Assembly (NCBI GenBank): GCA_048213135.1
Contig: PS015016.1
Location: 192,681-244,910 of the forward strand
DNA: 52,230 bases
DNA from: Reclinomonas americana ATCC 50394
Taxonomy: Eukaryota
Direction of reading: 5' to 3'
Positions within the stretch are counted from its first letter, which is position 1; every line of letters starts with the position of its first letter. Shown piece after piece: positions 1 through 29,061 of this stretch. The notes under the pieces were generated by a model, which saw nothing but the letters and a program-made list of their open reading frames with translations, was not told the origin of the DNA and ran no database searches. The translations under genes and the position numbers were made by a program.

Positions 1-78
1 GAGCGAGCACGAGCGATGTAAATAAACAACCAGTGAGTACAACACCTGCCATGCAAACGCAGAGTGGCGCAACGCAAC

Positions 79-930
79 ACTGTGCGTATGAAAAAAAAAT
101 TCAGCCACGACTGTCAGTCAGGTACAACAATTGCACGCAAGGGCTGAACAAACGCAACGCTATGGAGGCACCGAAAAGCGAGCCGCGGAAACACAAACGG
201 GATGTCAGTCTCTCACTGCACAAGAACACCGCACTACTCGACAAGACGCAACACTGTGCGAAAAAACACACGTGAGCACAATGAGACAAATACAAAAGAC
301 GGCAAGCACATCTGACTCACACTACTCGCGCGTGTGAGGCGGAGAGACGGTAAGTTCCCGAACAACGAAAGGAGCGATGCGAAACTGAAAAAATGAACGC
401 AACGCATGTGTGGGCCACCTGAATCGCAACGAGAAACACAGTGAGCACTTTGTGCACAAGCAAGCAAACTCACATAAACAGAGAAGGGGAGTCTCACCGG
501 TAGAGTCTCGTCACTGGCGTGTCCTCCGAACCGGTTGATGGTGAATGGACAGTCCCCTGCATAATGTGCGTGAGCAACACGCGCAGAGACCGCATGATAT
601 TCACTGTCAAAGAGTTCGCAACACTGCCAACAAGTTGTCGTGAGCAGAGTGAGATACACACAGTCGATAAGTGCACGACTTGGAACGCAACAGAATCGTC
701 GTTCGGCGGCAGGCGATTGCGACCCCACACCTGCAGCACACAATTCTCGTGAGGTCAGACCATTCTTTAGAGGAAATAATGTACTCCTGGTTACAACGCA
801 ACAAAGCCTGCAGATGCACGCACTGCATTGTTAGCAACAACGTATCACGCACGAACAGAACACAAATGACGCAACGAAGGAACAGCTGGCGCTCCTCGGC
901 GGTGAAGGACTGCAGCGCACGCCACAAGTA
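79..930 (-). CDS. HERC-type HECT E3 ubiquitin ligase, C-lobe part 1 (partial; on an apparently inverted contig)
   Basis: Minus-strand exons 930-876, 807-803 (5 nt), 730-692, 623 (1 nt), 556-498, 418-404, and 1-nt exons 321, 253, 159, 79. All have AG/GT boundaries and splice to YLWRALQSFTAEERQLFLRFVWGRNRLPPNDDSWDCPFTINRFGGHASDETLPVAHTCF(F), the HECT C-lobe with the catalytic Cys. Confidence 0.9.
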
Positions 931-1542
931 CTGCACGCTCACGCGATTAGCAGGAGCGTATGCAACAGTTCCTCTATCAGCCTGACCTGTCTCCGTGCCG
1001 AAATGATCTGTGCCTCTCTCTCTCACTCTNNNNNNNNNNNNNNNNNNNNNNNNNNNNNNNNNNNNNNNNNNNNNNNNNNNNNNNNNNNNNNNNNNNNNNN
1101 NNNNNNNNNNNNNNNNNNNNNNNNNNNNNNNNNNNNNNNNNNNNNNNNNNNNNNNNNNNNNNNNNNNNNNNNNNNNNNNNNNNNNNNNNNNNNNNNNNNN
1201 NNNNNNNNNNNNNNNNNNNNNNNNNNNNNNNNNNNNNNNNNNNNNNNNNNNNNNNNNNNNNNNNNNNNNNNNNNNNNNNNNNNNNNNNNNNNNNNNNNNN
1301 NNNNNNNNNNNNNNNNNNNNNNNNNNNNNNNNNNNNNNNNNNNNNNNNNNNNNNNNNNNNNNNNNNNNNNNNNNNNNNNNNNNNNNNNNNNNNNNNNNNN
1401 NNNNNNNNNNNNNNNNNNNNNNNNNNNNNNNNNNNNNNNNNNNNNNNNNNNNNNNNNNNNNNNNNNNNNNNNNNNNNNNNNNNNNNNNNNNNNNNNNNNN
1501 NNNNNNNNNNNNNNNNNNNNNNNNNNNNNTTCGCACATGCAG

Positions 1543-2232
1543 TGTTGCGTCTCTCGTAATCTGCTTTCTAACTGCCTCGATTGTGTGTCACTCACTTGGT
1601 CGTTTCTTGCATGTCCTGCAGCTCGGTTCGGCTGTATTTTGCTGTCTTTGTGCATGCTGAATATCTGTTGTGTGATTTGAGTGCTCACCTGTGCCACCTG
1701 CAACTCGCCCGGTTCGATGTGCACAGCTCGGTGAGTGCAGTGTTCTTTTTGAGTCACGTGATGGTGATTCTGATGCGGTTCTTGGTGGGGGAACGTGCAG
1801 ACTTGCCGGAGTACACGTCGCAAGATGTGCTGCGCGAGCGCATCCTGTTTGGTGTGTGTTCTTGATGGGCGACGTTGTTGTATTTCAAATGCATTGCTAA
1901 ATTTGTTGTTTCTCCAGCCATTGTCAACTGCCAGGCCATCGATACCGACTTCAATCCGGAGAGGTGAGGAGTGTTGTGAAGTGTGTTGTGTGTTTAATTG
2001 TGACTTGGCTAACTCTGTTTGTAACACACAGCTCTGCGTGCGTCGCATCGTGTCACGCACATCTTCTGCGGTGCTTGCTTGTTCCTCACATTTTTTTGTT
2101 GTTGAATGTTGCTGTACACAGCTGGTATGTTATCGTCCAAGAGGGTTGGGAAAAGGTGTAAGGTTGGCAATAGTGAGTGTGTGTGACGGTTCTTCTCGTG
2201 TGTGCAGGTTGGATGCCGGTGTCGAGGAGTGA
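1543..2232 (+). CDS. HERC-type HECT E3 ubiquitin ligase, C-lobe part 2 (C-terminus)
   Basis: Exons 1543 (1 nt), 1622-1625, 1727-1730, 1801-1851, 1918-1963, 2032-2037, 2122-2124 and 2208-2232 give (F)SLDLPEYTSQDVLRERILFAIVNCQAIDTDFNPESSAWLDAGVEE*. This matches the HERC1/2-like terminus LxLPxYxS...LxYAIxNCxxIDxD. Confidence 0.9.
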
Positions 2233-2788
2233 GCAGGTACAGGTGGACGTTGAATGGGAGGAACACGTGAAAAGATCAACAATGAATGCCATGGTTATAC
2301 TCTTTGTGACGTGATGGGAGAGGAGATGGTAACAGCTGTCTTGATGACCAAGTTCAAAACATCACACAAACACTAGTCTTGAGGACAACAATAGACAGTT
2401 CACTGATCCAGTCTGGAGATCCACACACAACAATGAGCATCTACCAGTGATCGCCAACAAGTCCCGTGTGCTTTCCTTCTACAACTAAAACTGTTAAAAG
2501 TGTGTTATCGATGTTGAGAATATAGCCCTATTCAGCACACACTGCCACCAGGCCAAGAAGAAGACTTCGTCAGCAGTGATTGCTAGTTACCGATTGGAAG
2601 ACGTCCATCGCAGTAACAGCAGGTTTCTTGTGTCTCTCACACATCTCACACACCATCGACAATGGGCGTGACAAAGGGAACAACACGTGCAGCAGTCTTC
2701 CCCTGCGCACTGACGTCCTCCTCTGGCAAACCTCATGCAAGAAAGAAGCAAATTTTCGCAGCGTGTCATTTGTTTGTTTGTTTTTGTG

Positions 2789-3404
2789 ATGGCGGAGGAA
2801 GAGCAGTACTTGTTCTCGAAAGAGTACTATGCTAACTTGCTTGCCCGCATCAAGGCGTTTGCTGAGCGTGCGAGTCGAAAAGTCTATCGGGACCACAAGC
2901 GCAGTTCGACTGTGACTGTGTTTCCTGGAGATGACTACGGTGGCGAGTATGATAATGCGGGAGAGGAAGTGGAGGTGATCGAGGACTCGGTTGGTGGCGA
3001 TCGTGATCGCGAGGTCGATGGCGGCTATCTCAGTGACTGGCCATGGGGCGAGTGCGCCAAGGACTCCACAGTTACGCCCTGCTCTCGCATTGTATGTGTG
3101 CCTCTCTCTCTTTGTGTGTGTGTGTGTGTATGTGCACGTGTGTGTTGGTGGTGGTGGTGTGCGTGTGTTGGTGGTGGTGGTGGCGGTGTGTTGCAATTGT
3201 GTAAAGATATTGGTTGCATTTTTCTGTGAACAGAGGCATCGTGCGGGCATGGCTGGTCATGAGCTTTTCAAGGTCGCTGCAGCTGCCAGTGCGGTAGCAA
3301 GTGTGCTTGATCATGAAGCTCCTTCGAATCCGGATCCACTGCCGGCGCTACATCCCGTCGATTTGCCACCAGCGTTGTTGCGTGACTTACTGATGGCACA
3401 TTGA
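2789..3404 (+). CDS. hypothetical protein (two exons)
   Basis: MAEEEQYLFSKEYYANLLARIKAF... open reading frame, a GTATGT donor near 3092, a GT-repeat intron, then a second exon ...RHRAGMAGHELF...LLMAH*. No family recognised. Confidence 0.5.
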
Positions 3405-5593
3405 TCTCACGCACACACACACTCTCGATGAGTGTTTCTGCTTGGCTGTGTGTGGTCTGTCGATCGTGGACCACACGCTCGTTGTCGATGTGTACAGGAA
3501 AGAAGAGTGTGCCCCAGCATCTCTTGCGCATGCCTGTTTGTTTCTTTGTGCTCGTGCGAGCGCCTTCATGTTTCTCCCTCTCTCCCTCTCTGTGCGATAT
3601 TTTACGCGTGGCGCGCACACACTCACACACCGCAGAGAGAGAGAAACAGCGTCGCTCTCGCGTTGTGCAAGTGTTGTCTCAAAGTGCCAGTTTTCTCTGC
3701 TTCTTTCTCTCCGTTTCTCCCACAGTTATTTTGCTTTGCCTGCACACACAAACACACACACGCTCAACTTTGCGGATGAGATCTAGAGTGCGCAGAGCGT
3801 GGCAAGTAACTATCTACGGTGTTGGTGGGTTTCCCATGGTCTGATCGAAGTGTGTAATATTTCCAAATTTGGCAGATCCTTTAAAGCTTTTGCCGGTATG
3901 TTGCATGATTTCTCTCTTCACGCATGCATGCACTCGCACGCTGTTCTTCCACATAAGAGAGAGAATGAAATTGATAGTACACACCACGGTGGATGTGTGT
4001 GTGTGTGTGTGAGTCTCTCNNNNNNNNNNNNNNNNNNNNNNNNNNNNNNNNNNNNNNNNNNNNNNNNNNNNNNNNNNNNNNNNNNNNNNNNNNNNNNNNN
4101 NNNNNNNNNNNNNNNNNNNNNNNNNNNNNNNNNNNNNNNNNNNNNNNNNNNNNNNNNNNNNNNNNNNNNNNNNNNNNNNNNNNNNNNNNNNNNNNNNNNN
4201 NNNNNNNNNNNNNNNNNNNNNNNNNNNNNNNNNNNNNNNNNNNNNNNNNNNNNNNNNNNNNNNNNNNNNNNNNNNNNNNNNNNNNNNNNNNNNNNNNNNN
4301 NNNNNNNNNNNNNNNNNNNNNNNNNNNNNNNNNNNNNNNNNNNNNNNNNNNNNNNNNNNNNNNNNNNNNNNNNNNNNNNNNNNNNNNNNNNNNNNNNNNN
4401 NNNNNNNNNNNNNNNNNNNNNNNNNNNNNNNNNNNNNNNNNNNNNNNNNNNNNNNNNNNNNNNNNNNNNNNNNNNNNNNNNNNNNNNNNNNNNNNNNNNN
4501 NNNNNNNNNNNNNNNNNNNNNNNNNNNNNNNNNNNNNNNNNNNNNNNNNNNNNNNNNNNNNNNNNNNNNNNNNNNNNNNNNNNNNNNNNNNNNNNNNNNN
4601 NNNNNNNNNNNNNNNNNNNNNNNNNNNNNNNNNNNNNNNNNNNNNNNNNNAGGCCGACATTATACGGCACACCAATCACTCCGCTCTGCTCATGCCGTAC
4701 TTCATGTGCTTGAAGAGAAATGTTAGTTGCTTGAGTTTTCTTTGCTCAAATAAGCAAAATGAAAGAAGAACGAGTAGGAGACAATACTTATGTCGACTGC
4801 TCGTTCTTCACTTTCAGAAACCATAGTATACCATAAGTAACTAATTAAGCTGCGACAGCGGCTCCATGGCCAGGCGCTAACGGAAACCGTCCTAGGCCTG
4901 CTGCGCCATGATGCTAGCGCTGCGCAGCCGCCACACCAATTGCAGTCCAGTGCTGGCAGTCTCGAGAAGACATTGGGGCACAACACGGTATCAGACCGGC
5001 GGACATATCGCAACGTCTTTTCGATGGGAAGATGCTGATTGTTGTGTGCATGCGTGCAGACTTGTCGGTGCGCAGTGTGTGCGTTGAGCTGCATTCGTGG
5101 TGGCATGTATCACTTGGCCCAGTTTTCTCGCGAGGCAACAAGCACTGCGGCTGGCAGCAACAACGTTGAAACAAGGGGCTTCTGGAAGGAGATTGACGCC
5201 TGCTTTGTTTGAGAGCAAAAGAAGAGCGAAAACGAACAGGACAACTGAATGAAGTGGTGGTTCCTGCTGCCTGGTCGTATCTCACTCTGAAAACCTAAGT
5301 ATACCAATCGGACTAGCGACCTGCGGAGGTCGGTAGTCCCGATCCACACAATTGCAACACATGTAATACAACAAAAACCCGCGGCCGGACCCCATCTACA
5401 AATTGTTGTTGATTTCTCGTGTGCGCTGGCATTTCGAATTCAAAGCGCTGCGGATTGGCGACCTTCGCAATACAGTTTTTAACATGGACTGCAGTGAAGG
5501 CCGCATGTTTGTCGTTTTCGGAATGCCACCAAATCCACAGTCCACCCAAGTGACCAAAAACGCAATCACAGTGTTTCTCTTTCCACACGCAAC

Positions 5594-8055
5594 ATGTCAC
5601 AGAAAGTCCAAGAGCGTCATCAGAAGATCCTGCGCGATCTTGTGCAGCTTCCCGACAACCGCCGTTGCTTCTCGTGCTCCACTCGAGTTGCGTCATCTGC
5701 AACAGTTGTCGACGCAGTACGCACACACACACACTCTCTCTCTTGCTCTCTGTACATTCCCTCCCCTGTCAGTGCTCTCTCTCTAGAGACAGAAAGAATG
5801 TGTGTGGACACACCCAATTTGCGTGTGTTGCTCATGTCCACACCATCGTCGCTCGACACGCGCACACACGCAACACACACGCGCGCGCTCAGCCGCTTCT
5901 GTGTGTACGCATGAGCACGCGTGTCTCTGCGCGTGTGCACCACGCGCGCGGTTTTCTCTCGCTCTCTTTCTCTTCACACTGCATCACATTGCGTGGGGTT
6001 GTCAATGCCCGCCACCACTCGCGCGCGCACACACGCCCACACTCTCGCTCCCTTCCACTGATGCGTGTTTCTCCTCTCGCCGCGCACTCGTGTTCTCCTG
6101 CCTGCACACTTGTGTTGTGAGAGTTCTATTTTTCTTGCAAGCTCACATCCACGCCACACACACACGCGTTCACAGGGCAACGTGTACGCGGTGCTGCCGT
6201 TCAACATCTTTGGTTTGTTGTCTACTTGCTGCCTAGAGGTAAACCTCCTCCCCTCGCCACGTCATTGACTCATATCTCCTGCTGTGCAGTCTGCACGCAC
6301 TGTGCCGGCATTCAGTTTCGTCTGTTTCTCGTCCTCGGGAGTCGCACTGTTGGCTTACTGTCTGTGTGTGTTTGTGATAGCCGCAAGTTCACCAACCACC
6401 GCGTCAAGGGCATTGGTATGGCCAATTTTACCCCCGATGAGGTCAAGGCGCTGCAGGAGGGCGGCAACAAGGTCTGCTGGAGCTCGCTGACTTCGCGCGC
6501 TCTCTCAATCTATCACACTCACCACCACCTCTCCTCTCTTTTGTTTCTTTATTCATAGGTCGCTCGCGATGTCTGGCTCGGCCAGCTGAAGGACAGCGAC
6601 ATTCGTCTGCCCGACCCCAAGGACGATCGGTTCGTATTCGGCCGCCCCTTCTCGTTGTTCATGCACTGATCTCTCTGTCTCGTTTGCAGTCTGATCGAGG
6701 CGTTCATTCGGAGCGTCTTTGAGCAGAAGCGCTACTACCGCGAGCCAGGAGAGGGTGGCTCGGGCGGCTTTGACGACGATGTTGCGTCGCACGCATGCAT
6801 CACAGAGTGAGAGGATTCTTGTGTTGCTGATCGTGACGCAGGGTGAGGTCGATTCCATTCCGCAAGCCGACGTCCGCGAAGTCGTGAGGGAGCTGCCAAA
6901 GCTCCATGTTGCGTCTTCCTGCTCTATAACGCGCCCTTGCGTCTTTTATGCTCATGAGAACGAGCAGGTGTCGGATCCGGGCACTCGCCCCCGCTCTGGC
7001 TCGGGCCGCAAGATGCAGCTCGGCGGTGGAGGTGGTGGTGCTGGTAGCTCTGCCACACACGCTCGTCGCGATCACTCGCCCGAGAAGCCGGCGGCCGCGG
7101 AGAAGCCAGCTGCCGCAGCCGGTGGCAAGAGCGGTGGTGTTGCGTCACTCGTGCACAAAGTTGGTTTATCGCAGCAGATGATTGACATGTGCATGTTTGG
7201 CTTGCAGGATGATCCATTTGGATTCTTTGATGGCCCCGACCCGCATGCCAGCGCCGCCAAGGCACCTTCGGCGGCCGTGGCTGGTGAGCATGCGTCATAT
7301 CACGCGCGATACATAATGTCCACTCACGTGTACTTGTTGCAGGTCTTGATGAGTTTGACGCCGCGTGGGACGATGATGGAGTGCGTCGTCGCATGTTTTT
7401 GATTTCATGTTGGCGCTTGCTTTCACTCACTTCGTCTGTTCTGTCCAGGCTGCGGCTGCGGCTTCGGCAGCACCTGCCAAGGACAAGAAGTCGATTGTGT
7501 CGGATCTGTTCAAGTCGGTGAGTCGCTCCCTCTCTCGTTTTACCACTGTACCTCTCCCTTCCTCTGACACATGAAATCAGATGCCGGGTGGTGGCTTTGG
7601 TGGTGGTTTTGGCGGTCAGGCGGCACCCTACGGCGCCAACCCGTACGGCGCGCAAGCCAATCCCTACGGTCAACCGGCTGGCGGCAACCCCTACGGCCAA
7701 CCGGCCGGTGGCAATCCGTACGGACAGCCGGCTGGTGGTAACCCCTACGGGCAGCCGGCTGGCGGCAACCCGTACGGCCAAGCTGCGGGTGGCAACCCAT
7801 TCGGCGGAGCTGCTGGCGGCAACCCGTTCGGTGGTGCTGCCGCAGGCGGTTACAACATGCCGCAGCAGGCCAACCCCTACGGCGGAGCCGCGCAGGGTGG
7901 CAATCCGTTTGGTGGACAGCAGGCGCAGGGCGGCAATCCGTTTGGTGGTGGTGAGTTCCATTTCTGTCCATTTTTTCCTGTCTTTAATGTTCTCGTACTC
8001 ATGTCAGTTGTCGCCAGACATGGGTGGCTTTGGCGGTGGCTACCCGCAGCAGCAG

Positions 8056-19098: not shown

Positions 19099-22000
19099 TC
19101 ACTTGACAAATGCGTGGTCGAGCAACTCGTCGACCGAGAACCGCAAGTGGGGTTCCCTGCACAGCGCCACCAGTCAGATAGTTAGCATATGTGCGCTGCT
19201 CATCTGCTCCTCTTGCGGATCAGACCTTTGCAGGCAGTGCTCGAGAAAGTCCACAAGATCGGGCGGCAGTGAGTTGTCGGTGGGAATTGTCGGGCGCTGG
19301 CCAGCAAGGAGTGCGCTCACGATTTGCCACTGCCAGCCACACCACGCCATGTGCATGTGAGTAAACCGTGCTTCGCCCTTCATCGACAGCCACTCACCTG
19401 GTTCAATTTGCCCCACGGAGGTCTGCCGGTGGCCAGCTGCAACAGCATGCAGCCGAGAGACCACACGTCGGCACGCAGGCCGTAGCGCACCGAGCCCTCG
19501 TTGGTTGCACCTTCTGCGTCAAACGCCACGCAGCACACCTCCGGCGCAAAGTACGCCGGCGTGCCGGTCGATTGCGTGCCAGTTTGCGTCTCGGCGTCGA
19601 GCAGCTTGGCCACACCGAGATCGGCAATCTTCAACACATCGCCCGCCGATGATGGGCAGAGGAGCACGTTGCCGGGCTTGATGTCTGCGAGCGGGGATGT
19701 GAGGAGATGAGAGGCAAAGGAGAAGAATTTAAATGCATCTTGAAGACTTGCCTCGATGAACCACCAGATGAGAGTGCAAATAGGAGAGGCCATGCAACAG
19801 TTGCCTGTAATGCGGGAAAATGAGTGCTGGATGGAAGCAGTGTGCGAGAACAAGAGCACAGACCGCGTGTAGTCGCGCAAAATGTCCACCGGCAGCACTC
19901 GATACAGAGAGAGACGCTCGGCGAGTGTGCCACCCGAGCAGAGCTCCATGACTGTGTGCTCACCAAATGAGGTGACAGATGGCAGAAGGCAAAGAGAGAG
20001 AGAGAGAGTAACACACCTAGTTGAACCTCGGCAGCCTCGGGTACGTAGTGCACGTCGATGAGCTGCACCAGGTTGCGATGTCGCAGCTCCCGCAACAACT
20101 GCACTTCGTTGACCACCGCCACCACATGCTGCTCGGCGACGCCAGTCTGTGGCAATCGAATGCGCTTCACCGCCACTTGCGTGCCGCGTATTGGGCCCGA
20201 CAAGATCATTCCTACCGGGCGTCGTTTGCGATCAGCAACCGACTTGCCCTACGCATCTCATTCATTCACCGCGCTCACCTTGCATGACTTCGCCAAACGC
20301 ACCGCGGCCGAGCAATCGATCTACGGAAAAAACGCAGATGAGCACATGCACTTCCCAACGAGTTCACTCCATCACGCGCCTGTCATCGAGAACTGCACGT
20401 GGTCATCACCACAGAGAATGTCGGCCAGCAACACCGACAGAGACTGCGGATCGTCGCCGCCCGCAACAACAGTAGCGGATGAACTCTCACCGCCAGACTG
20501 CGAGCGCACCACCACTGTGCAGTCGTCGCCACCAATCGCAAACGAGCTATTTGCACTCGAAGTACCAGAGCTCCACGAGAATGATTGTGCACGAGTGCGT
20601 GGTGCGGACGGCTGGTCCACCACACGCCACGTTTGCTCCGAGCTACTGTACATCCACATGCGAGTGCCCTCCAGTGAAGACGCCATTATGTATTGTCCGT
20701 CAGCAGAGAAACACACATCGCGTGGAGGCTCCGAGTGCCCCTGCAGTGTGGCCACCCGCTCACTCCGAATAGATGACGGTGAATGTGGCTCACCCTCAGC
20801 CATCGCCAGTGACCACACATGCACCAAAGTGTCCTTGCAGGTGACTGCCAGCATGGAATTGTCGGGCGAGAACGCGACACCAAAACACGCCATATCATGG
20901 CGCAGGCGGGCAACTGCGCACTGCTCTCGCACAGACCACACGATTGCAAAACAGTCACGAGAAGCCGACGCCACCCAGTTGCCGTCAGGCGAAATGGCCA
21001 CGCGGAACACGTCTCCCTCGTGCCCACCATCCTTCAGCACACCCGTACACTGCCCCGTGTCCAACGAATACAAGCGAACGGTACGATCCCACGAAGCAGA
21101 TGCCGCAAGGTTCGGAACGGTCGCACATGTGGAGAGGCCCCACTGCACGACGGTGGGGAGGGAGAAGTGACGGAGGGAAGGACGAAAGAGTCTTGTCAAT
21201 GTGCACACGCACGCACGCAACAGTTGGGTGGTTGTGAGTTCCGGAGAAGCGTCGCAAATGCGTCAGCGTATCTGTTTCCCACTGATGAACGCCATCTCGC
21301 GCACCGGCGAGAAGTGTCGCGCCATCCGGCCACACAAATGCCAGCGAGCACACCGGCTCGTGACCGCGCTGCACAGTGGTCGAGCGCAGCATCTGCAGCT
21401 CGGGTGCCGGTGCATCGATGCTCCACTGCACAGAGGGAAAGAGAGAGAGGGAGAAAGAAGTGAGATGGAGTCATTGGACAGAGCAAGAGCGTGTTCAAAA
21501 ACCATCGCGATAGTTCCGTCTGCAGCAGCCGACGCTACTAATTGTGTATTCACAGGGTGAAACGCGACAGCGTACACCGAACCAGTGTGCAGTCGGCCGA
21601 TGCGAAGAACTGTGCTCCACACAAGAGTGAGAGTTATTTTCTAGTCACCATTATCATCACCAGCAGAGTGCGTACCCGGAAACTGCGGCACTTCGTTTGG
21701 TCTCGGCGATCCGACCGCACGCCTTGGACTCCTTTCTGCTTTGTTGCCTATATCCGCCTTTCCTTCCCTCCGCTTCTCCTCTTCCTCCTCCACTTCCTGC
21801 TGGTCGCTGTCATCGGCAGAGAGTGAATACAGGATGATTTTGGCATCTTGACCGCCACTTGCAAACTGATCGCCATTCGGTTGCCAGCACACACTGCATT
21901 GTTGATGCATGTGAGGAGAGCATGAATGAAGAGACGCACTGAGTGTGTCACAAAGACAGCAAACCTGTACACCGTGCCGATGTGACCACCGTTGGAGACT

Positions 22001-27947: not shown

Positions 27948-29061
27948 ATGGCGATTGGGTGAGTCGCCAGACAGACATAACAGACAGGTGGCAGAGGGCA
28001 GACGCAGGAAGCGCACTGGCGTGTGCGTGTGGCGGTGGTGCGGGTGTGAGGGAGAGAGAAGTGTGTGGGCATGAACACATGCGCATGTCGGTGCCATGCA
28101 TGGCGCACAGCCCCTCTCCTCCCTTCTCGCCCGCCTCCCTCCTCCTGTGCACACGTGTATATGCGTATGGGTGGTGGAGAGGGAGAGTGCTCCAGTGCAA
28201 CACGTGCACTTTCTGCGAGTGTGAATGTGTGATTGATTGATGGAGACGATGGATGTGTGTGCGCTTGAGACTGCTGCCTCTCTCCCTCCGTCCCTCTCTC
28301 TCCCTCTCTCTTTCTTGTGCTCTTGTTGACAGAGTCACACGCACGACTTTTCCGCACACTGTGCCATGATCAGATCTCTCGATCACACCCGTCATCTTAC
28401 TTTCTCTCTCCAATCCCCATAACCCAGCATGCTCACCACTTGTGCGCCCTCCTTCCTCCTCCCATTAACAGAAAGAACCCGATGAAGAGCAAGTACACCA
28501 AGAAGGGGTCGAAGAAGAAAGTGTTGCGTGCCATGGCATGTCTGCTGTGCTCACTCGCTGCGCACTCACCCTTTTCTTCCCCTCCTCTCTTTCCTTCTTG
28601 GTTAATCGCCGCCAACAGCATTGACCCCTACTCACGCAAGGTGCGTTGTTTCTGTCGTTTGCTTGAGAATCTTAATGGAAGAGACTCGGGGTGTCACTCA
28701 CACTCGGTCTGTGCAGGAGTGGTACGACATCAAGGCCCCGGCTGTGTTCCGCGAGCGTGAGGCGTGCAAGACCATTGTGAACCGCACTGCCGGCACCAGT
28801 TGCGTCTGCGTGTACAGGGGGAAAAAGAGAAGCCGAATTGGGGCTAATCGCGCTTGCTTGCTTGTCCACAGAGATCGCCTCTGAGGCGCTGAAGGGCCGC
28901 GTGTTCGAGGTCAACCTCGGCGATTTGCACAAGAACCCCAACCTCGGCAACCGCAAGATCAAGCTGCGCGTGGAGGACGTCCAGGGCCGCGCCTGCCTCA
29001 CCAACTTCTACGGCATGGTGTTCACCACTGATCGCCTGCGCTCGCTCGTCCGCAAGTTTCG
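27948..29061 (+). CDS. RPS3A: 40S ribosomal protein S3a/eS1 (N-terminal part; remainder lost at gap)
   Basis: [36 protein letters not shown]...[29 protein letters not shown]...[36 protein letters not shown]. Confidence 0.97.

Follow-up and report, generated by a model that had tools for sequence, protein, structure and literature searches.

Only a few genes are known to contain exons of a single nucleotide, which count as curiosities. In plants, single 1-nt exons are reported in APC11 and VPS55; RNA-seq and RT-PCR have proven them, they are shared throughout the land plants, and they are needed for the reading frame, missed by annotation and hard for read mappers to place (Yu et al. 2022, PMC8831610; Guo & Liu 2015, PMC4674806). 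Fusarium CYP621A contains one exon of this kind, reported with backing from 20 orthologues, from a relative without introns and from SRA reads (Nelson & Syed 2026, PMC12940212). Among the literature matches listed for 1-nt exons, the spliceosomal cases (plants and Fusarium) are all single, and the organellar ones are placozoan cox1 and fungal mitochondrial introns; several such exons in one gene are described in none of the matches listed for 1-nt exons, stwintrons and recursive splicing. Two further systems invite comparison, these are the stwintrons of fungi, in which an inner intron interrupts the donor, the branch site or the acceptor of an outer one, and the recursive splice sites of Drosophila, at which acceptor and donor abut (AG/GT) and no base is kept.

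Here we analyse a 52,230-nt stretch of DNA (the window) at one end of which a putative HECT ubiquitin-ligase gene seems to combine several micro-exons. Two of them, the single base T623 and the pentanucleotide GCTTT (807-803), both on the minus strand, had been proposed in a sequence-only reading; a script re-derived the same letters and coordinates, the first lying between units of 68 and 66 nt and the second between units of 68 and 72 nt. On balance we regard T623 and GCTTT as probable real, constitutive exons of this gene.

The host gene and its place in the window

The window is interrupted by nine N runs and has a GC content of 0.54-0.62 across most of its length and of about 0.5 in positions 1-6000 (N runs allowed for). 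This lower-GC first 6 kb is also the home of the intron-dense HECT gene. The first contig (1-1029) is free of N, and the first N run, a 500-N gap at 1030-1529, begins only at 1030. Therefore T623, GCTTT and their flanking intron units all lie within one contig, which bears out the earlier statement that both micro-exons are free of any assembly join. The body of the HECT gene occupies the minus strand of 1-1029 and its C-terminal tail the plus strand of 1530-2161, across the 500-N gap, so that contig 1 has the opposite orientation to contig 2, being inverted either in the scaffold or in the genome; this is explained most simply by a scaffolding error affecting a 1-kb contig. Rfam and tRNA scans of the window returned no RNA genes, and a homologue search with its WD40 exon gave generic matches only, at 40% identity or less. 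The minus-strand contig was parsed as follows, the chain from I6 onwards being recovered by dynamic programming.

876-1029, minus: HECT exon, its 5' side open at the contig end; encodes ...ANRVSVQYLWRALQSFTAEERQLFL and the first base of an Arg codon; ends in ...TTCCTTC
808-875, minus: intron I1, 68 nt; GTTGCGTC ... TGCTAAC ... CTGCAG; part of the top-ranked path
803-807, minus: 5-nt exon GCTTT; completes the Arg codon (C+GC) and adds the Phe (TTT) of FLR-F-V
731-802, minus: intron I2, 72 nt; GTTGCGTT ... CCTCAC ... CTGCAG
692-730, minus: 39-nt exon; encodes VWGRNRLPPNDDS; starts GTG TGG GGT, ends ...GATTCT; GC3 9/13
624-691, minus: intron I3, 68 nt; GTTGCGTT ... TGCTCAC (16 nt before the end) ... 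GGCAG
623, minus: 1-nt exon T; first base of TGG (Trp), the GG at 556-555 completing the codon
557-622, minus: intron I4, 66 nt; GTTGCGAA ... TGCTCAC ... ATGCAG
498-556, minus: 59-nt exon; encodes (W)DCPFTINRFGGHASDETLP; starts GG GAC TGT CCA TTC ACC
419-497, minus: intron I5, 79 nt; GTGAGACT ... GTGCTCAC ... ATTCAG
404-418, minus: 15-nt exon; encodes VAHTC
1-403, minus: intron chain I6 (403-322), I7 (320-254), I8 (252-160), I9 (158-80) and I10 (78-..., open)
321, 253, 159 and 79, minus: 1-nt exons T321, T253, C159 and T79, single bases between the intron units I6 to I10

The identity of the coding pieces was assessed by motifs and by searches of Pfam and the PDB. Motifs of the HECT C-lobe are present along the gene, namely the helix FL.FV, LP.AHTC and the tail LDLP.Y...L..AI, and we take VAHTC at 418-404 to be the motif marking the catalytic Cys of the HECT domain. 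The Pfam scans were run on unspliced pieces only (n=8), of which one matched HECT: piece 1029-876 aligned with positions 211-236 of the 306-position profile (PF00632) at an E value of 0.081 and 13 bits, under the 23.9 cut-off. The other seven unspliced pieces gave no Pfam HECT match. When the same piece was compared with the PDB, seven of its eight matches were HECT ligases (HUWE1, HECTD3 and TOM1; E 0.11-0.65), the PDB alignments with HUWE1 and HECTD3 extending along ...VQYLWRALQSFTAEERQLFLR and continuing as FLQFV in the former and FLRFV in the latter. The tail exon (1801-1851) retrieved HECT ligases in 12 of 12 PDB matches (Itch, E6AP, WWP1 and WWP2), each of them weak (E 0.97-1.7), at their extreme C-terminal RLDLPPY...LLFAI. 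PDB searches with short pieces of 26, 21 and 33 residues found no HECT match, and the piece from exon 1918-1963 by itself had zero matches. For the 51-residue HECT exon piece no orthologue was found among 13 candidates (lengths 91-2000), and a library of 1.84 billion yielded a single match, to a non-HECT repeat protein. As read from these motifs and alignments, the predicted host is a HECT ubiquitin-ligase gene of an intron-rich, GC-rich protist. Its C-terminal part is what the window contains, since the portion upstream of 1029, with the N-lobe and the rest of the protein, falls outside it (gap at 1030-1529).

Two probable micro-exons and their alternative splice paths

The three coding pieces of this region occupy three different frames, and therefore the frame changes between them are real. 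A complete GT...AG intron stands on either side of T623, I3 and I4 each having a GTTGCG donor, a TGCTCAC branch site and a terminal CAG. Reading through I2 once I1 has been removed leads to a TAA. A further segment, 966-931 (36 nt; GTTGCA...CTAAT...GTGCAG), was considered as an intron and dropped, being in frame and aligning as protein with HUWE1 and HECTD3; since it looks like an intron and yet is coding, splice-like signals alone can mislead in this gene.

To rank the possible parses, all combinations of up to two GT/GC...AG introns of at least 35 nt were enumerated between anchors in the flanking exons, and those that were in frame and stop-free were kept. Paths were scored with donor and acceptor matrices derived from 18 other introns, the two under test being left out, plus a simple branch-site term. 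With a score that adds a positive term for every intron and therefore favours two-intron paths by construction, the T623 parse came first of 27 in-frame, stop-free paths (34.9) and the GCTTT parse first of 96 (35.0). The second path at T623 (30.3) also retains a 1-nt exon, and the best one without any, combining I3 with a 48-nt intron (604-557), ranked third (28.9); splicing of I3 with read-through of I4 ranked eighth (18.3). Overall, T623 figures as a 1-nt exon in 5 of the 27 paths, 22 lacking any 1-nt exon. At GCTTT, an acceptor at 823, which makes a 20-nt exon, was second of 96 (31.7), and a single intron from donor 870 (FLRC-VWG) was placed 70th (9.0). Both parses stayed first when training was restricted to the six non-HECT introns, though with margins reduced to 1.5 bits at T623 (27.4 vs 25.9, the path with the 48-nt intron coming this close) and 2.2 bits at GCTTT (22.1 vs 19.9).

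These results also qualify the earlier claim that each micro-exon is required for frame. The T is indeed needed if I3 and I4 are both spliced, as in the parse ranked first of 27, and the statement is nonetheless too strong because lower-scoring in-frame paths exist (read-through of I4, the 48-nt intron, the acceptor at 823 and the donor at 870). The further proposal that GCTTT completes a conserved motif agrees with the PDB alignments, the Phe that it restores in FLR-F-V being the one found in HECTD3 (FLRFV) and HUWE1 (FLQFV). We know of no conserved residue corresponding to the Trp created by T623.

The alternative that survives best is partial splicing, in which T623 starts a longer exon, either 623-605 followed by the 48-nt intron 604-557 or 623-498 with I4 read through and 22 extra residues, and GCTTT either forms the end of a 20-nt exon (822-803) or falls within one intron (870-731) and is skipped. 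We consider it rather unlikely. All of these paths are in frame and free of stops: I4 is exactly 66 nt long and stop-free in frame, so its read-through keeps the frame without a 1-nt exon, and the first AG past the branch site of I1 is that at 824-823; moreover, the coding 36-nt segment 966-931 shows that intron-like signals can be false. Against this, every partial-splicing path scores lower under both training sets. None of the 20 measured introns (59-101 nt) is as short as 48 nt, the branch A and the AG at 823 are separated by only about 7 nt as compared with 12-23 nt in the other introns, and use of donor 870 would swap the Phe of HECTD3 and HUWE1 for Cys. The frame read through I4 has a GC3 of 8/23 vs 79/118 in the HECT exons (a count that leaves out the kinase piece), and the likelihood ratio of intron over coding for I4 is about 120, computed with a pooled coding GC3 that included a mis-framed kinase piece. 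Length speaks in the same direction: counted from the Arg that Pfam places at position 236 of its 306-position profile, our model reaches the LFAI Ile in 62 residues. In Itch this Ile lies 5 residues from the chain end, and the count fits the roughly 65 profile positions available, which leave no room for the 22 residues that read-through of I4 would add.

A predicted chain of micro-exons leading to the HECT tail

Beyond the gap, the gene is resumed on the plus strand by the following elements.

1530-1800, plus: end of I10 (...-1542), T1543, I11 (1544-1621), CTCG (1622-1625), I12 (1626-1726), CTCG (1727-1730) and I13 (1731-1800)
1801-1851, plus: HECT tail exon; encodes (D)LPEYTSQDVLRERILF
1918-1963, plus: next exon; its first bases complete an Ala and give Ile, yielding LF-AI as in Itch

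Tentatively, the gene would end at a stop near 2159-2161. On the same strand, near this end, two intron units enclose CTCTGC (2032-2037), which may be a 6-nt exon, and the frame is kept also when it is skipped.

No open frame resembling the HECT tail was found between VAHTC and the LPEY exon. For the chain parse, contig 1 was reverse-complemented and joined to contig 2, training was confined to introns outside this stretch, and the gap was assumed to hold no coding sequence. The best in-frame path from VAHTC to LPEY has eight introns separated by exons of 1, 1, 1, 1, 1, 4 and 4 nt and reads C-FFSLD-LPEY. The chain T, T, C, T, T, CTCG, CTCG, which links the Cys codon to ACTTGCCG, closes the frame exactly: its 13 bases and the AC of the next exon amount to exactly five codons, with Phe first and L-D before LPEY. 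The resulting spacing between the catalytic Cys and LDLP is the usual one for the HECT family. With per-intron penalties of 8, 12 and 16 bits other paths win; at these penalties as at 0, the best path includes at least one 1-nt exon. Any further exon bases in the gap would have to add up to a multiple of three. If the gap holds nothing coding, the exact closure of the frame would lend independent support to the use of single-base exons by the HECT gene, which by this parse would total six 1-nt exons (five of them consecutive), two of 4 nt and one of 5 nt.

The chain also bears on a second alternative, according to which the locus is either a HECT copy in decay that an inversion has disrupted or an erroneous draft contig, in which case the arithmetic of frames would be biologically meaningless. 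It could draw on the split between a gene body on minus (1-1029) and a tail on plus (1530-2161) with 500 N in between, on the fragmentary assembly seen elsewhere, where the RPS3A gene lies in a scaffold without its 3' half, and on the lack of any recorded protein like the HECT exon piece among the 13 candidates and in the 1.84-billion library. A decayed or scrambled sequence, on the other hand, is at odds with what the locus has preserved, since every exon piece is open, the motifs FLR-F-V, LP-VAHTC, LDLPEY and LF-AI are intact, and all 14 complete HECT intron units keep a donor and a YAG, most of them also a branch site. The chain across the gap, moreover, closes the frame exactly and with the usual Cys-to-LDLP spacing, and scaffolding often places a contig of 1 kb in the wrong orientation. 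The sequences of I3 and I4 differ from each other, which argues against a duplication or a haplotype artefact. We therefore hold a non-working or mis-assembled locus to be improbable, somewhat more so than partial splicing.

Intron signals and donor types

Complete introns (n=20) measure 59-101 nt with a median of 72, and the 14 complete HECT units have a GC content of 0.39-0.55 vs 0.52-0.67 in the exons. Donors were tabulated for these 20 introns and for the open-ended I10, 21 in all (15 from HECT, 3 from RPS3A and 3 from a kinase gene), and all are GT except one GC. A third alternative, in which 691-557 is removed as a single intron and the missing base is supplied by a non-canonical donor one base downstream (TT...AG), by RNA editing or by ribosomal frameshifting, would likewise restore the frame by taking G691 into the exon, with Gly in place of Trp, and is highly improbable, given that it needs a non-GT intron start, exceptional among the 21 donors, while T623 itself is bordered by an acceptor and a GTTGCG donor that are both perfect, and that no editing or frameshifting signal was seen.

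Two genes elsewhere in the window provide introns for comparison with those of the HECT gene.

28473-29059, plus: RPS3A (eS1) gene, 5' half; GTTGCGT donors at 28523 and 28799; 22-nt exon at 28619-28640
19685-19751, minus: GC-AG intron of the kinase gene, GCAAGT...CGCAG, between ...LVVHR and DIKPGN

In RPS3A, homologues with 78-84% identity establish where the exons join, and the 22-nt exon is needed for KKKV-IDPYSRK-EWYD. Its 65-residue exon had 165 matches, the best at 84% and 83%, with the jakobid Seculamonas ecuadoriensis as the best named one at 81% and green algae at 75-77%. From this one exon comes a tentative lead that the DNA may belong to a discobid, perhaps a jakobid-like one. The window lacks the 3' half of the gene, low-complexity sequence following 29057 up to a 20-N gap. 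The donors of the kinase gene (19.4-20.3 kb) are GTGTGT, GTCTGT, GCAAGT (of the GC-AG intron) and GTGAGT, and this variety makes GTTGCG one donor type among several. A pyrimidine precedes GTTGCG in 10 of its 11 donors, whereas 9 of the 10 remaining donors have a G at that place (Fisher P 3e-4), and AGT stands just upstream in 5 of the 11 GTTGCG donors. This pattern suggests two donor classes in the window, and it is tempting to speculate on a variant U1 reading the GTTGCG class. Nothing relevant to GTTGCG introns appeared among the literature matches listed, and a search of the jakobid intron literature returned nothing on micro-exons; Andalucia godoyi is reported to be intron-poor (PMC7050145) and so does not match the present DNA.

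GTTGCG itself occurs 75 times in the window vs 50 expected, a count reached in 0 of 100 shuffles. The composite YAGNGTTGCG, an acceptor and a donor one base apart, is found five times in the 52-kb window vs 1.54 expected, two of 100 shuffles reaching this number, and all five sites fall within 1.66 kb of the HECT gene and on the strand of the gene, where the local expectation is 0.024 (Poisson P ~7e-11, calculated post hoc).

Other origins and classes of intron were considered for these units. An introner-like family would be expected to show likeness beyond the splice signals, and none was found in an alignment of 12 introns, whose mean column identity is 40% with the ends alone conserved; in pairwise comparisons, 6 of 105 pairs exceeded z=3, the best local score being 25. 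A search of 1-2300 for terminal inverted repeats or target-site duplications detected no direct or inverted repeats of at least 16 nt. With dissimilar units and no repeats of this length, a mobile-intron or introner family was rejected and a recent mobile-element origin is unsupported. U12-type introns have the donor consensus RTATCCTT and the branch site TCCTTAAC; the minor class was rejected for the present units, which have GTTGCGT or GTGAG donors and TGCTCAC branch sites.

Proposed splicing of the micro-exons and origin of their introns

The splicing of the RNA as parsed, the order of intron removal and the origin of the arrangement are inferred from DNA. Each of the two micro-exons would lie between two ordinary short spliceosomal introns of 66-72 nt, whose recognition signals would all be intronic: a 5' GUUGCGU, a branch site UGCUCAC or UGCUAAC located 12-23 nt before the end and a terminal YAG. 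Under such intron definition no exon signal is needed, and an exon can therefore shrink to one base. Because acceptor and donor are one base apart and could not be handled simultaneously, neighbouring introns would have to be spliced in turn. In the first reaction the single base would become the end of a longer exon, and the second would then face what looks like a normal splice site. The same gene would also contain the five further 1-nt and two 4-nt exons predicted from the codon of the catalytic Cys to the LPEY tail.

The introns are crowded in pyrimidine-rich coding sequence (TTCCTTCGCTTT, GATTCTTGG, TGCTTCTTCTCGCTCG), which hints at a targeted gain of introns. Extending this line of thought, one could imagine a distinct intron class (pyrimidine/GUUGCGU...UGCUCAC...YAG) that is read wholly from inside, perhaps by a variant U1, and that has been gained repeatedly beside splice junctions in pyrimidine-rich coding sequence, eight introns now interrupting 13 bases (TGC/T/T/C/T/T/CTCG/CTCG/AC). 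We put this forward as a tentative idea that is more doubtful than the exons themselves. In such a class, recognition internal to the intron would make exon length irrelevant to splicing. If this were true, eight introns per 13 bases would surpass by a wide margin every packing of introns described, no longer run of 1-nt exons would be on record, and the gene would offer a natural test bed for splicing order and site-directed intron gain. A gene with six 1-nt exons, five of them in a row, together with exons of 4 and 5 nt, would show that a spliceosome is able to work without any exon information; it would impose a fixed order of intron removal that could be read from partly spliced RNA, and it would suggest that introns are gained at hotspots. 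Such a gene would be annotated wrongly by every gene finder and read mapper now in use, and the predicted proteomes of the lineage may consequently be systematically truncated.

Comparison with known systems

The systems introduced above share with the micro-exon parse different parts of its logic. Stwintrons, recursive sites and the arrangement proposed here have in common two successive splicing reactions, the first of which alters the surroundings of the second site. I3 and I4, in contrast to the components of a stwintron, both have their own signals intact and uninterrupted, on which ground the stwintron was discarded. A recursive site with a zero-length exon was rejected as well, one base being retained between acceptor and donor: in the parse, the base that separates CAG from GTTGCG at T623 would stay in the mRNA, and the units are of 66-68 nt.

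The closest counterparts are the 1-nt exons of other nuclear genes. APC11 and VPS55 are reported to present the same configuration, one coding base between two GT-AG spliceosomal introns, and the exon of CYP621A was detected in the same manner, its exon phases fitting only if the base between two introns is kept. In CYP621A the kept base restores a conserved motif. The differences lie in number, in donor and in kind of evidence: the plant exons are isolated and that of CYP621A is single, whereas the HECT gene would have six, five of them consecutive, with the donor Y/GTTGCG, as predicted from DNA. If real, its exons of 1, 4 and 5 nt would be among the smallest known, and the HECT gene as a whole, if confirmed, would take to an extreme a phenomenon already known to be rare.
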